From positions 832,001-896,000 of the forward strand of contig CAVPIB010000001.1 of NCBI GenBank assembly GCA_963704885.1: a stretch of 64,000 nucleotides of DNA, in the 5' to 3' direction. The translations under genes were made by a program, and so were the position numbers. This stretch comes from an uncultured Actinomycetes bacterium. GTDB taxonomy: Bacteria; Actinomycetota; UBA4738; HRBIN12. Shown in pieces: positions 37,574-50,229 of this stretch (position 1 is the first letter of the stretch; each line of letters opens with the position of its first letter). The notes below the pieces were generated by a model. The model was given only the letters and a program-made list of their open reading frames with translations. It was not told where the DNA came from and did no database searches.

Positions 37574-39151
37574 ATGGAAGAACGACGGACCGACTCCGGG
37601 ATCGAGCTCCAGCCGATCTACACGGCCGACGACCTGGTCGGGTTCGATGCCGCGAAGCAGCTCGGCGAGCCCGGCGAGGCTCCGTTCACGCGGGGCATCT
37701 ACCCCGACATGTACCGCGGGCGCCTGTGGACCATGCGGCAGTACGCCGGGATGGGGAGCGCCGCGGACACCAACGCCAGGTTCCGATATCTCCTGGATCA
37801 CGGGCAGACGGGCCTCTCGGTTGCGTTCGACCTGCCCACGCAGATGGGGCTGGATTCGGATCATCCACTCGCGGAGGGCGAGGTTGGCAAGACCGGTGTG
37901 GCGATCGACTCGATCGACGACATGCGGCGCTTGTTCGATCAGATCCCATTGGATCGCGTGACCACGTCCATGACGATCAACTCGACCGCGGCCATCTTGC
38001 TCCTGCTCTACGAGCTGGTCGCCGAAGAGCAGGGCGTGGACGCGTCGAAGATCGGCGGCACGGTCCAGAACGACCTGCTGAAGGAGTACGCGGCCCGCGG
38101 CACGTACATCTACCCGCCCAAGCCGTCGATGCGGATCATCACCGATCTGTTCGCGTACTGCGGCGAGCGCATCCCTCGCTGGCACACGATCTCGATCAGC
38201 GGCTACCACATGCGCGAGGCGGGCGCGACCGCGGCGCAAGAGATCGCGTTCACGCTGGCGAACGGCATCGCGTACGTGCAGGCGGCGATCGACGCAGGTC
38301 TCGCGATCGACGACTTCGCGCCCAGGCTCTCGTTCTTCTTCGCGTGCCACATGCACTTCTTCGAGGAGATCGCGAAGTTCCGCGCGGCCCGACGGATGTG
38401 GTTCCGGATCATGACGGAGCGGTTCGGCGCACAGGATCCGAAGAGCGCCATGCTCCGGTTCCACACGCAGACCGGCGGCGCGACGCTCACCGCGCAGCAA
38501 CCGGAGAACAACATCGTTCGCACCGCGCTCGAGGCCATGGCAGCCGTCCTGGGTGGCACGCAGTCCCTCCACACGAACTCGTTCGACGAGGCGCTAGCGC
38601 TGCCCACCGAGCGCGCGGTGAAGATCGCGCTGCGGACCCAACAGGTGATCGGCTACGAGACCGGCGTAGCCAACGTGGCCGACCCGCTCGGCGGTTCGTA
38701 CTACGTGGAGTCGTTGACCGACGAGCTCGAACGGCTGGCGCTGGAGTACCTGGAGCGGATCGAGGCCATGGGCGGCGCGGTCGCGGCCATAGAGCGCGGT
38801 TTCTACCAGGAGGAGATCCACGATGCCGCCTTCCGGATCCAGCGGGGGATCGAGTCGGGCGAACGCGTCGTCGTTGGCGTGAACCGATTCGTCGACGAGG
38901 AGGAGAAGCCGGTCGATCTCCAGCGGATCTCACCCGACGAGGTGAGGATGCAGGTCGAGCGGCTCAAGGAACTCCGAGAGACCCGCGACGCGACCGCGGT
39001 CGGATCCGCGCTCGCGGCGGTAGGGGAGGCGGCTCGCGGGACCGACAACCTGTTGCCGCCTATGAGGGTCGCGCTCAAGGCTCGCGCCACGCTGGGCGAG
39101 GTCTCCGACGTACTGCGCGACGTTTACGGCGAGTATCGCCCCTCGTTCTAA
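37574..39151 (+). CDS. Methylmalonyl-CoA mutase N-terminal (large) subunit
   Basis: WTMRQYAG (Tyr, MCM-type), [33 protein letters not shown]; lacks a B12 domain. Confidence 0.93.
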
Positions 39152-39297
39152 GCGAGCGCGAAGACCGCATGCACGACGGCCGCCAGGCCGGCCACGGCCA
39201 CCACGGCGCCGACGAGACGAAGACCGGGTTTTCCCCACAAGCCTCCGGCCGCCAGCAGGCACGCGACTCCGACCGCCGCCTCGATCACTGCCGTCAC
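39148..39297 (-). CDS. Unlisted 49-aa two-TM membrane protein
   Basis: GTG 39297 to [52 protein letters not shown]; starts 5 nt after the corrected carH stop. Confidence 0.6.
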
Positions 39298-39302
39298 GGA
39301 TG

Positions 39303-40179
39303 TCAGCGAGCCCCCGATCCGATCAGATCAGCAGCTCGCTCGAGGTCGTTGCCCAGGTAGACGCCCAGCAGTCGTCTCGCGAGACCGTGACGTCGCGAAG
39401 GCGTTCCCCCCGTAGAAGACATCGACGCCCGGGATAGCAGCCACGGCGCGAAGCGACTCCATCGTCGCCCGCCGGCCGACGCTGCGCTGCGCGCTCACGA
39501 CCGCGCCGGCCGCTCGTGAAGCGCGGACCGCTGTGACCAGGGAATCCGCCGGCGTCACGGCTCCAAGAACTCGACAGGACCAGCCCCGTCGCGCCAGCAC
39601 CACCGCGAACGCTTCCAACCCGATCGTATGAAGCTCGGTCGGACCGCACGCGAGTACGAGCGGGTTGCGCCGGTACGGTGGGGGGGCGAGAGCGCCGATC
39701 CGAGCTAGCCACTGCCGAACGATCTGCGTCGCGAGATGCTCGTTCGCCACGTCGCAGGCCCCCGCCTGCCAGAGGTCTCCCATCTCCCTCATCCCCGGCA
39801 GCGCCACCTCGCTGATCGCTCGCCCCACCCCGAGGAGCTCCGTCGCTTGGTCGAGAGAGCGCCGTATGACATCGGCATCGAGAACTGCGGCTCCTTCGGC
39901 GAATCGATCGATGAACTCGTTCCTCCCCAGGGGCACTCCCACACCCAAGCGGACGGTCGCGACGGCCTCCCGGGCTCGGTTGCCTCGGGTGATCTCGTCG
40001 CGCACCGCTCGGAGGCTCTCGACCTCCTCGAGCGAGTACCGACGGTGCTTACCGTCCGTGCGAGCCGGCGACGGGAAGGAGTAGCGGCGCTCCCACGATC
40101 GGATCGTCGGCACCGGGATGCCGAGGAGCTCTGATACCTGCGCGATGGTCATGCGAACCTGATCCGTGTCGTGGTTCAT
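39303..40179 (-). CDS. carH: MerR-family B12-binding regulator (CarH/LitR-like photoreceptor); apparent +1 frameshift near 39365 in the C-terminal tail
   Basis: MerR HTH (TIRSWERRY...GKHRRYS), W-x9-EH (WQAGACDVANEH), ExHxxG (ELHTIG), FYGG; shifted frame continues GVYLGNDLERAADLI. Confidence 0.88.
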
Positions 40180-40180
40180 C

Positions 40181-40317
40181 TGGATAGGTTACCTATGTGT
40201 GTGGTCACTTGGGTGCTACTACTGCATGGGTTCGTACTCTGTAGTGGTTCATCACTCCAGCTAGAGGCCCTATCTTTCGCTCTTGTGAAATGCATGGGTT
40301 CTATCATAAACCATGCA
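40181..40317. promoter_or_regulatory. Divergent promoter region with four copies of the YGCATRGRTTC operator-like motif
   Basis: TGGATAGGTTA 40181, TGCATGGGTTC 40223 and 40291, inverted TGCATGGTTTA 40307-40317; -10 TAACCT (minus strand, 6 nt before carH ATG) and TATCAT 40302-40307. Confidence 0.7.
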
Positions 40318-40381
40318 GTTGAGTAGTGGATACTTGAGGTGATCATCGAACTACAGCGCCGGCGACTGACAAGGAGAAGCG

Positions 40382-48798: not shown

Positions 48799-49239
48799 AT
48801 GGTCGTGATCCGAGAAGAGCTAGAGGTCGATGAACAGCTCGAGGACGCATTCGCGTTCGTCGGCGATTTCGCGAACTCGGTGATCTGGGACCCGGGGGTG
48901 GCGGAGTCCCGCAACGTCACTGGGGGCCCCGTACGGGTAGGAACCAGCTACGACCTTACGGTCGTGTTCGGGGAACGGCGCTTGCCGATGACGTATGAGG
49001 TCACGGTCTTCGATCCACCCAACCGCGTGGTTCTTCGCGGCACAGGCGCGACGGTGAACGCCGTGGACGACATCCGGTTCGAGCCTACGGACCGGGGAAC
49101 GCGGATCCGCTACATGGCCGATCTACGTTTGAAGGGCCTCCTGCGCGTGGTCGAGCCTTTGATGCGCCGCCGTTTCGAGGACACTGGCCGAACAGCGATG
49201 GCAGGGATGAAGCGAGCCTTCGAGACTCGGACCGGATAG
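48799..49239 (+). CDS. SRPBCC/polyketide cyclase-like protein
   Basis: AFAFVGDFANSVIWDPGV, AVDDIRF, YMADLRL; SD GGAGGAG. Confidence 0.85.
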   Translation: MVVIREELEVDEQLEDAFAFVGDFANSVIWDPGVAESRNVTGGPVRVGTSYDLTVVFGERRLPMTYEVTVFDPPNRVVLRGTGATVNAVDDIRFEPTDRGTRIRYMADLRLKGLLRVVEPLMRRRFEDTGRTAMAGMKRAFETRTG

Positions 49240-49290
49240 CCTCCCTGCAGGGACGCGGCCACTCAAGTTCGAAGAATCGCCGGACCTTCT

Positions 49291-49408
49291 GAATCCATGC
49301 AAGACGATGGGACACGAGCCATTCGCGCATAGATTCACCGCGCGTTCTTCGATCGCTATCGCTCTGTGACCTGGGGGTGAATCACCTCACTTCGCTCTAA
49401 CCTATGCA
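49291..49408. promoter_or_regulatory. Three more operator-like copies upstream of DUF4397
   Basis: GAATCCATGCA 49291 (rc TGCATGGATTC), CGCATAGATTC 49326, TAACCTATGCA 49398 (rc TGCATAGGTTA). Confidence 0.6.
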
Positions 49409-49493
49409 AATACATGCCAAGCATGGACGCTTCCGCATCGGATCAGCCAGTATCTTCCCCAGCGGACGGAAGGTCCGGATGGAGGAGGAGAAG

Positions 49494-50171
49494 ATGAGGA
49501 AGAAGCTGATCGGAGTCGCGGTAGCTGGGGCTCTCGCGATGACCGTGATAGGCACTGGTGTGTCCAGCGCTCGGGCTGAAGGTGCCACCCTGAACGTCGT
49601 GCACGGCATCCCCGGCCTGACGGTGGACGTTTGCGTGGACGGTGCCACGGCTATCCCGGACTTCGCGCCCGGCACTGTCGTCACGGGTGTCGAACTGCCG
49701 GCAGGCTCGCATGAGTTCAAGGTGGTGGCCCAAGACGGTGATTGTGCCGACGCGGGGATCCTCGTGGTCACTGCTGGTCTGAAGGCCGGCAAGGATTACA
49801 CGGCCGTGGCGAACCTCAACGCGAGTGGCGACCCTAACCTAGAGCTGTTCAAGAACAAGGTGAAGCCGGTCGCGAAGGGCACCTCTCGGCTCACCGTTCG
49901 TCACACTGCGAACGCCCCGGCAGTCAACGTCTGGGCGAACGGATCCCGCCTTATCCGTGGTAACGACTTCACCTGGGGAAAGAGCGCGACGGTCGCGGTG
50001 CCCAAGGGCATCTACGCCGCGTGGGTTTCCCTCCCCGGTGATTACACGCCCGTGATCGGGCCCGCGGTGCTCAAGCTCAAGGCCGGATTCGCCTACCAGG
50101 TGTACGCCTGGGGCGACGCCACCAGCGGCTTCGAACTCGCGGTCGTTGCGACCAAGGTCGGCACCAAGTAA
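49494..50171 (+). CDS. Secreted DUF4397 domain protein
   Basis: Signal peptide, VVHGIPGLTVDVCVDG, LTVRHTANAPAVNV; strong SD. Confidence 0.85.
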   Translation: MRKKLIGVAVAGALAMTVIGTGVSSARAEGATLNVVHGIPGLTVDVCVDGATAIPDFAPGTVVTGVELPAGSHEFKVVAQDGDCADAGILVVTAGLKAGKDYTAVANLNASGDPNLELFKNKVKPVAKGTSRLTVRHTANAPAVNVWANGSRLIRGNDFTWGKSATVAVPKGIYAAWVSLPGDYTPVIGPAVLKLKAGFAYQVYAWGDATSGFELAVVATKVGTK

Positions 50172-50194
50172 GCCCCTCCCCAGCCGATCTTTGT

Positions 50195-50229
50195 GCGACC
50201 CCGCCGGCGTCCCACGCCGGCGGGGTCGC
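50195..50229 (+). terminator. Perfect 16-bp stem-loop
   Basis: GCGACCCCGCCGGCGT-CCC-ACGCCGGCGGGGTCGC followed by TGTCTGT. Confidence 0.75.

Follow-up and report, generated by a model that had tools for sequence, protein, structure and literature searches.

In a 64,000-nucleotide stretch of DNA from an uncultured actinobacterium (hereafter the window: positions 832,001 to 896,000 of contig CAVPIB010000001.1, here C1, of assembly GCA_963704885.1), we describe a gene cluster that we consider, at a probability of roughly 0.7 and on the strength of sequence comparison, to be a light-stress regulon under a repressor resembling the class I CarH/LitR photoreceptors. The assembly comprises 3.0 Mb in 20 contigs and is 97% complete. 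An earlier reading made from the letters and open reading frames (ORFs) alone, the sequence-only reading, had already named the gene set and its layout, and Pfam profile matches on the window ORFs, on which all gene assignments rest, bear out every gene it named. The two proteins that it had called short-chain dehydrogenases/reductases (SDRs) differ in kind: the second (47696-48718) is indeed a classical adh_short protein, and the first is atypical and NmrA-like. The features of the locus are as follows.

39328-40179 as assembled (283 amino acids), 39303..40179 without one extra base, minus strand: carH-like regulator gene (Pfam MerR_1, B12-binding_2 and B12-binding)
40180..40381: divergent carH/ftsX1 control region, with three putative operator copies
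40382..41515, plus strand: ftsX1, an FtsX-type permease with four transmembrane helices (Pfam FtsX)
41512..42613 without one extra base, ORF 41594-42613 as assembled, plus strand: ftsX2, second permease (Pfam FtsX)
42629..43300, plus strand: ATP-binding cassette (ABC) ATPase of the MacB/LolD/DevA type (Pfam ABC_tran, 120 bits)
About 43345-44262, plus strand: NmrA-like NAD(P)-binding protein, an atypical SDR encoded at the end of the pump operon (Pfam NAD_binding_10/NmrA)
44313..45545, minus strand: S-adenosylmethionine methyltransferase of the cyclopropane fatty acid (CFA) synthase family, in a UfaM-like position (Pfam CMAS, 264.7 bits)
45542..46333, minus strand: DUF1365 protein of the UfaO family (Pfam PF07103, 255.7 bits, profile positions 1-232 of 235)
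46330..47628, minus strand: FAD-dependent oxidoreductase with an amine-oxidase fold, in a UfaD-like position (Pfam Amino_oxidase/NAD_binding_8)
47629..47695: promoter of the lipid trio, a 67-bp spacer with two same-strand putative operator copies
47696..48718, minus strand: classical SDR with a conserved N-terminal extension (Pfam adh_short)
48799..49239, plus strand: SRPBCC protein, divergent from the SDR (Pfam Polyketide_cyc2)
49240..49493: DUF4397 control region, with putative operator copies
49494..50171, plus strand: secreted tandem DUF4397 protein (Pfam, two DUF4397 stretches after a signal peptide)

The regulator shares its three-part architecture with the class I CarH/LitR proteins of Thermus thermophilus, Bacillus megaterium and Myxococcus xanthus. 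It aligns with T. thermophilus CarH (TtCarH, PDB 5C8D) over residues 3-266 (E 5e-26), and combines a MerR helix-turn-helix (HTH; MerR_1, 45.6 bits), a four-helix bundle (B12-binding_2, 42.2 bits) and a Rossmann-type B12-binding domain that scores 33.9 bits against a cut-off of 32.1. The RxWERRY-type recognition helix, IRSWERRY, is invariant in 11/11 aligned homologues, as are W137, E147 and H148 of the Wx9EH motif, which reads WQAGACDVANEH in the translation, and the His and Gly of the ExHxxG motif, here ELHTIG. Both motifs, together with the full-length likeness to TtCarH, uphold the proposal of a CarH-like regulator made from the sequence alone, and features of the Wx9EH and ExHxxG type are described as setting CarH apart from the B12-independent CarA (PMC9304148). 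Inside Wx9EH, a Cys (W-x-x-G-x-C; codons at 39738-39773 of the window) is likewise invariant in 11/11 clade homologues, at a position where TtCarH has Ile.

By its sequence, the regulator is the only CarH-like (MerR-B12) gene of the genome, since the other small proteins that match B12-binding_2 have no HTH. Four further matches were found, namely one frame of 1208 amino acids, taken as a candidate MetH on its size, and three small proteins of 235, 216 and 231 amino acids, which we considered as a possible second CarH and set aside: they start straight at the helical bundle and have no tblastn match to CarH. The genes beside three small corrinoid proteins (L002, L003 and L004; G000 C7 and C1) resemble methyltransferase partners on translation, which suggests that the host may carry out methyl transfer of the methylated-amine or methanol type. 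PduO-type adenosyltransferases and methylmalonyl-CoA mutases use adenosylcobalamin (AdoB12), and the presence of one such adenosyltransferase and of three mutase genes in the genome (tblastn) indicates that the cofactor is available in the host.

The second line of evidence is a motif, TGCATRGGTTC, scored with at most one mismatch unless stated otherwise. It has 7 copies in the window against 0.83 expected, a count reached in 0/100 shuffles, and 6 of the 7 fall into three intergenic regions, namely the carH/ftsX1 spacer, the spacer before the FAD-oxidase gene and the region before the DUF4397 gene.

carH/ftsX1 spacer: 40223-40233 (+), 40291-40301 (+) and 40307-40317 (-), the last two forming an inverted pair around TATCAT
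Trio promoter: 47658-47668 and 47680-47690, on the same strand and 22 bp apart
DUF4397 region: 49291-49301 (-) and 49398-49408 (-), with a weaker copy at 49326-49336 (+)

The claim that the promoter regions share one motif thus holds well, with just a two-mismatch copy, overlapping a start codon, in the SDR/SRPBCC spacer. A one-mismatch copy at 31035-31045 (TGCACGGGTTC) lies within an ORF of the isocitrate/isopropylmalate dehydrogenase family (30809-31882) and is probably due to chance. Across both strands of the genome (6 Mb), a looser 11-mer form has 7 matches, 5 of them at this locus. Of the 14 strongest genome hits of a position weight matrix (PWM) built from 32 sites of relatives only, 8 fall at the window locus, the first four among them; this test is not fully independent because the relatives' sites were chosen with a regular expression derived from the window. 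The next PWM hits were considered as further regulon members, and none was convincing: C4:515544, C8:79478 and C1:224337 lie inside ORFs and C7:203727 follows an extracytoplasmic function (ECF) sigma factor gene.

The architecture of these sites recalls that of CarH operators. Published CarH sites are described as tandem 11-bp repeats nnnnTnnACAn with a TnnACA core, overlapping the -35 region (PMC9304148), and the complement of our motif, GAACC-TATGCA, contains a TnnGCA version of that core. In the trio promoter, 17 nt separate the end of the proximal copy from a TAGGGT box, itself 6 nt ahead of the ATG, and this operator-N17-TAnnnT-N6-ATG layout is common to the window and to loci L007 and L058; the -10 boxes named here come from manual comparison of loci and not from a promoter scan. 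The trio promoter therefore looks like a leaderless one in which a repressor would sit over the -35 region.

Conservation in relatives ties the motif to the regulator. A search with the regulator protein returned 16 CarH loci, all from uncultured Actinomycetota metagenome-assembled genomes, and the regular-expression form of the motif occurs in 14 of them, typically just upstream of carH; upstream of DUF4397 genes in relatives, it forms a tandem pair 12 bp apart. Among 60 other genomes of the family that were sampled, 20 have a carH orthologue of at least 45% identity, and the motif lies within 250 bp upstream of carH in 17 of these 20 and in none of 9 distant paralogues (27-35% identity), although such k-of-n contrasts overstate the support, the genomes compared being kin and not independent. 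A survey of ±10 kb around 60 DUF1365 loci, out of 401 sampled Actinomycetota genomes, placed the motif within 300 bp upstream of the FAD-oxidase gene in 11 of 13 loci in which that enzyme shares 56% identity or more with its window counterpart (10/12 without the window itself) and in 0/45 loci below 50% identity. The two misses are L011, where the copies have two mismatches, and L039, where the flank is short. The motif also stands upstream of the pump in 3/3 genomes with an intact pump, and copies with at most one mismatch occur in the SDR/SRPBCC spacer of 4/6 clade loci, such that this gene pair appears to be a regulon member in relatives that is weakly marked in the window. We regard the motif as a clade-conserved operator tied to this carH orthogroup, and as a putative binding site of its product.

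The mechanism that we propose is as follows. In the dark, the AdoB12-loaded regulator would oligomerise and bind phased copies of TGCATRGGTTC lying over the -35 region of promoters with a short leader or none; light would break the Co-C bond, the regulator would leave the DNA, and four units would be transcribed. These would be carH itself, through autoregulation; ftsX1-ftsX2-abc-nmrA-like, encoding a putative heterodimeric, HrtBA-like type VII ABC pump; the lipid trio, which would most probably act on a monounsaturated acyl chain of a phospholipid and yield a methylated furan fatty acid able to quench singlet oxygen; and the gene for the secreted, tandem Ig-like DUF4397 protein. Pump and lipid trio would be parallel modules, gained or lost independently, and not one pathway.

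Beyond the kinship of the genomes compared, several observations weigh against this account. The regulator scores 122.2 bits with the NCBIfam CarH equivalog NF052513, whose cut-off is 400, which indicates family-level likeness only. Within its D/ExHx2G/P-x41-SxT/V-x22-27-GG motif, ELHTIG is followed after 41 residues by S-A-Q in place of SxT/V, with GG 25 residues later. From the signature published for light-responsive cobalamin-binding domains (GxxW, EH, GxxH and GxxxP; Yu et al. 2024, PMC11796333), GDLW, EH and GAVTP are present, and one of the four elements, GxxH, departs from the signature: TELH stands at its position, with a Gly two residues earlier. The operator half-site is TnnGCA and not TnnACA, and tandem copies are 12 bp and not 11 bp apart, with others 21-22 bp apart or inverted, which departs from the published tandem 11-bp consensus. 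A sigma-70 consensus scan of 39100-50300 returned 0 promoter-like sites, the carH gene is frameshifted in this assembly, and the product specificity of CMAS-family enzymes is unreadable from sequence. Finally, near-identical DNA comes from sequencing runs labelled marine sediment, a setting that may receive little light; these labels were not used as evidence of function. One metatranscriptome run gave a share of words of 0.06.

The lipid trio is encoded on the minus strand in the order FAD-oxidase, DUF1365, CFA synthase (47628-44313), and stop/start overlaps (GTGA at 46333-46330, ATGA at 45545-45542) point to translational coupling, in line with the coupled operon that the sequence-only reading had described. 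The same gene order is found in Rhodopseudomonas palustris, where the contiguous RPA2571-2570-2569 (ufaD-ufaO-ufaM) are reported to suffice for the furan fatty acid (FuFA) 9M5-FuFA, and the Rhodobacter sphaeroides counterparts are described as UfaD (RSP1091), the DUF1365 protein UfaO (RSP1090) and the CFA-like methylase UfaM (RSP2144) (PMC7380195). We assigned the three enzymes at the family level, from Pfam, NCBIfam and PDB relatives. The closest solved relative of the FAD-oxidase is LkcE (6f7l, E 3.4e-47), and the DUF1365 protein had no match in the PDB. By analogy with the R. palustris operon, a furan fatty acid is most likely the product of the trio.

It is possible, if on balance unlikely, that the trio instead makes another lipid modification (methyl-branched, methylated-unsaturated or cyclopropane) without a furan ring, which would leave the regulon reading otherwise unchanged. 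The best family matches of the methyltransferase are cyclopropane synthases (NF008686 at 239 bits, below cut-off; Escherichia coli CFAS, 6bqc, E 1.6e-49), and the CFA-like RSP1089 of the R. sphaeroides operon itself, along with the rest of the accessory RSP1087-1089, is reported as dispensable for FuFA (PMC7380195). The unsaturated substrate may also differ from cis-vaccenate, since no membrane desaturase (PF00487) was found in the genome; a soluble DesA-type desaturase is present and is a plausible source of the unsaturated acyl chain. Against such an alternative product, the DUF1365 and FAD-oxidase genes are coupled to what is the only CMAS-family gene found in the genome (tblastn), the same order of three genes sufficed in R. 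palustris, and all three genes were detected together in 51/60 actinobacterial DUF1365 loci. With DUF1365 present in 62/401 sampled genomes of the phylum, 9/22 other genomes of the family and 1/3 other genomes of the genus, the trio is an accessory module. Among family genomes searched both ways, a CarH orthologue was found in 6/7 with DUF1365 and in 3/12 without it.

The pump is another part of the putative regulon. Genes ftsX1 and ftsX2 are joined by an ATGA overlap, and their products are 33% identical. The only PDB relative of FtsX1 is HrtB (7w78_B), matched over its full length in both searches (E 1e-5 with a single sequence, 1.8e-9 with a three-sequence profile). For the ATPase, NCBIfam gives DevA, MacB and LolD as the best matches, none of them reaching its cut-off. 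The two permeases with their FtsX domain, of the kind with four transmembrane helices and an extracytoplasmic domain, and the ABC_tran ATPase of the MacB/LolD type together show the features of a type VII (MacB-like) system. The resemblance to HrtBA of Corynebacterium diphtheriae (PDB 7W78; PMC9271180), shared in the four-transmembrane FtsX permease and the MacB/LolD-type ATPase, is nonetheless remote. HrtBA has a homodimeric permease under haem two-component control, whereas the window encodes two different permeases behind a light-type operator.

FtsX1 orthologues occur in 2/60 other genomes of the family. One, G261 (L147), has carH, motif copies and ftsX1-ftsX2-abc as in the window, followed by a second CarH-like gene and a photolyase gene; the other, G415, has a perfect motif about 125 bp before ftsX1, with carH more than 1 Mb away. 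No DUF1365 was found in G261 (95% complete) or G415 (90% complete). DUF1365 is present in G014, where only pump relics lie by carH and the motif (L150:8109-8681), namely the final 91 residues of FtsX2 (249-339, 72% identity) and two pieces of the ATPase (residues 1-35 and 164-223). Because pump and motif occur without DUF1365 in two genomes and the trio occurs with mere pump relics in a third, pump and trio are independent modules of one regulon, which speaks against the earlier suggestion that the pump exports the lipid products. The pump is rather an old, often-lost companion of carH, independent of the trio, and we speculate, by analogy, that it removes membrane photosensitisers.

The history of the pump in G014, where it has truly decayed, bears on whether the locus is decaying in this strain as well, with real frameshifts, a constitutive regulon and a dead pump. 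Two frameshifts do lie within 2.3 kb: past about 39373, the conserved carH C-terminus is read in a different frame, and so is the N-terminal helix of ftsX2 ahead of about 41594. In contigs from runs labelled marine sediment, which share 95-99% identity or more with the window, exactly one base is missing at either break (at 39373 in 3 runs, at 41594 in 2 runs; two studies), and leaving out the extra bases restores the conserved ends of a 291-amino-acid CarH (ending at 39303) and a 366-amino-acid FtsX2. Contigs at 95-99% identity come from other strains, and the breaks are thus either assembly errors or private to one strain. In several places of related loci, genes are split into two frames (tblastn): carH in L020 (10001-10685), and carH and DUF4397 in L021 (10001-10787 and 11055-11724). 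Such splits fit indel errors common in these assemblies, and all other genes of the window locus align in one piece. Intact carH and ftsX2 exist in nature, and we consider decay of the locus unlikely; what the sequence-only reading had named as potentially fatal to it, real frameshifts in a decaying locus, comes down to two single extra bases absent from near-identical contigs.

The motif might instead be bound by another factor, a regulator or an alternative sigma factor, with carH merely one of its targets, which we hold to be quite improbable. Binding by CarH is itself a prediction from sequence, the half-site differs from published CarH sites, and ECF sigma genes stand beside CarH in L018 and L019 and near the trio in 14/60 loci. 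However, the motif tracks the carH orthogroup exactly in the family survey, no other regulator gene recurred beside it among the neighbours examined, and it resembles CarH operators both in its TnnGCA core and in the spacing of its copies by one or two helical turns. Copies face either way with respect to the gene that follows, some of them as inverted pairs, unlike a sigma promoter element, and we therefore take the motif to be an operator. As the operator sits on the target promoters, control by carH looks direct.

Genes known from light responses accompany this regulator in relatives. Pfam annotation of 37 selected neighbour ORFs from the 16 CarH loci identified heliorhodopsin adjoining carH in 3/16 (L007, L011 and L014), photolyase in 4/16 (L007, L008, L011 and L014), the ECF sigma genes of L018 and L019, and a fasciclin gene behind a tandem motif in L008. 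A single contig of G170, from the same genus, carries heliorhodopsin, NmrA-like, trio, SDR, SRPBCC, CarH and photolyase genes, and has copies of the motif both ahead of the trio and between SDR and SRPBCC. Heliorhodopsin neighbours are described as including photolyase, MerR, SDR and ABC genes (PMC11109279). In L011 (9057-10855), a copy of the motif precedes a heliorhodopsin-carH pair by 47 bp; in L007 (7568-8434), heliorhodopsin is encoded in the trio operon itself, after the CFA gene; and in L052 (3229-4232), the motif stands about 270 bp before heliorhodopsin. The heliorhodopsin genes of these three loci appear to be under the same operator. Separately, in two loci from large genomes of one genus, L084 and L089, the trio is accompanied by a LitR-like gene (W-x10-EH, EQHxLP) and by ECF sigma, photolyase and NmrA-like genes, which looks like a LitR-LitS-type arrangement next to lipid rather than carotenoid genes.

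Photolyase and heliorhodopsin beside the same regulator in relatives support the light-switched regulon that had been proposed from the window alone. The window's own genome is leaner: as noted earlier for the window, no crt or photolyase gene is present there, and neither photolyase (PF03441 profile; tblastn), nor a phytoene/squalene synthase family gene (PF00494), nor heliorhodopsin was found in the assembly, absences that are limited by its 97% completeness and by 16,000 bases lying outside the searches. That the regulator senses B12 supply or redox and not light, or acts without B12 like CarA, is very doubtful: carH does adjoin a gene for the B12-dependent methylmalonyl-CoA mutase in the window (ending at 39151) and in L020, the His after the Trp of TtCarH is Gln in the regulator and Gln or Lys in its homologues, and the sediment labels suggest a dim habitat, but the Wx9EH that distinguishes CarH from CarA (PMC9304148) is intact, relatives have photolyase and heliorhodopsin in the regulon, and the genome PWM hits included no gene for making or importing B12 behind the motif.

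The most constant partner of the regulator is the DUF4397 gene, which lies within the locus in 10/16 CarH loci, directly adjacent in 9, and is the commonest carH neighbour among those tested (tblastn). Its product matches PF14344 (87.3 bits) in two stretches, and 11 homologues share two invariant Cys and a repeated H-G/T-x-P...VDV...NG pattern. The sequence had no PDB match below E 0.03, and an AlphaFold (AF2) model (pLDDT 79.5, pTM 0.72) has two Ig-like beta-sandwich lobes, for which the best structural match is the extracellular domain of PepT1/PepT2 (Foldseek E 4e-8, TM-score 0.58-0.67), a modelled likeness from which no catalytic function would follow. We know of no function for the DUF4397 family. 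The extracellular domain of PepT1/2 has been reported to bind trypsin, and a trypsin-family protease gene follows DUF4397 in L013 (11840-12649) and L016 (6026-6823). Two genes encoding fusions of an alpha/beta-hydrolase with an adenylate/guanylate cyclase lie elsewhere in the window (12356-13723 and 14489-15934, minus strand), and a similar hydrolase-cyclase-like fusion directly follows DUF4397 in L011 (19136-20575).

The remaining members recur in several combinations. SDR homologues lie upstream of the trio in L007, L011, L014, L052 and L058; an NmrA-like homologue ends the trio operon in L011, and in L084, L089 and L106 others have photolyase and a CarH-like gene as neighbours. In L020, the closest relative, whose CarH is 71% identical, the genes for mutase, CarH, DUF4397, F420 reductase, hydrolase and carboxylase stand in the same order as in the window, but the 9 kb between carH and DUF4397 are absent. 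At the junctions of this block, intergenic DNA does not align with L020 past the coding ends, so that insertion and deletion are indistinguishable. The remainder of the window encodes tricarboxylic acid cycle, purine and other housekeeping functions (Pfam, 40 further ORFs).

Comparison with known systems narrows what is specific here. The window shares with class I CarH/LitR systems the recognition helix, Wx9EH, the His-on B12 motif, and, as predicted, autoregulation and phased direct repeats overlapping the -35 region; it differs in its half-site, 12-bp tandem spacing and inverted pairs, in a regulator without the His after Trp, with an invariant Cys inside Wx9EH and with a score below the equivalog cut-off, and in a regulon with lipid, pump and DUF4397 genes instead of carotenoid genes. 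In Pseudomonas putida and P. mendocina, the class II LitR proteins PplR and PmlR are described as controlling photolyase (phrB), SDR, FAD-oxidoreductase and hypothetical genes and ufaM; they consist of the helical bundle without a B12 Rossmann domain, reportedly do not bind B12, and act together with LOV proteins (PMC9758184). The window keeps the SDR-FAD-oxidase-...-methyltransferase order of that cluster, but in an actinobacterial host, with a full B12 domain in the regulator and no photolyase found in the genome. Compared by family and gene order, the UfaD-UfaO-UfaM systems of R. sphaeroides and R. palustris have the same FAD enzyme, DUF1365 protein and CFA-family methylase, the R. palustris order and an accessory SDR, under the ECF sigma/anti-sigma pair sigmaE-ChrR rather than a B12 MerR protein. 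Streptomyces LitR-LitS, a class I LitR with an ECF sigma factor, shares an actinobacterial B12-type LitR; the window carH has no partner sigma gene beside it, and its operator lies directly on target promoters.

In the literature searched, LitR/CarH was combined with ufaM only in PMC9758184, for class II LitR in Pseudomonas. The statement that the arrangement was undescribed was thus too broad, LitR-family control of a phrB-SDR-FAD-oxidoreductase-ufaM cluster having been published there. What is credibly specific to this locus, judging from the sequence comparisons, is its non-canonical operator, which comparison between genomes supports strongly, along with a lack of pigment and repair genes in the regulon and the membership of an HrtBA-like pump and DUF4397.

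CarH-type B12 photoreceptors are known mainly as switches of carotenoid genes, and the locus would pair such a receptor with a different operator and a regulon of furan-lipid, pump and DUF4397 genes. This lends further weight to the idea that bacteria commonly answer light by making furan lipids, a response that would now include direct B12 control in Gram-positives, and the compact operator/repressor pair, with its non-canonical half-site, is on offer for optogenetic tools. More speculatively, and in our judgement improbable as a complete picture, this actinobacterial family may run a membrane clean-up programme, in which a B12 photoreceptor without pigment-synthesis or DNA-repair targets would control an HrtBA-like heterodimeric pump that extracts lipophilic photosensitisers (free porphyrins, haem) or photo-oxidised lipids, together with a secreted Ig-like DUF4397 partner and furan lipids, and with a heliorhodopsin gene under the same operator in sister genomes, where one photoreceptor would thus govern expression of a second. 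Overall, the DUF4397 protein and the pump gain a testable physiological context, that of photo-oxidative stress.

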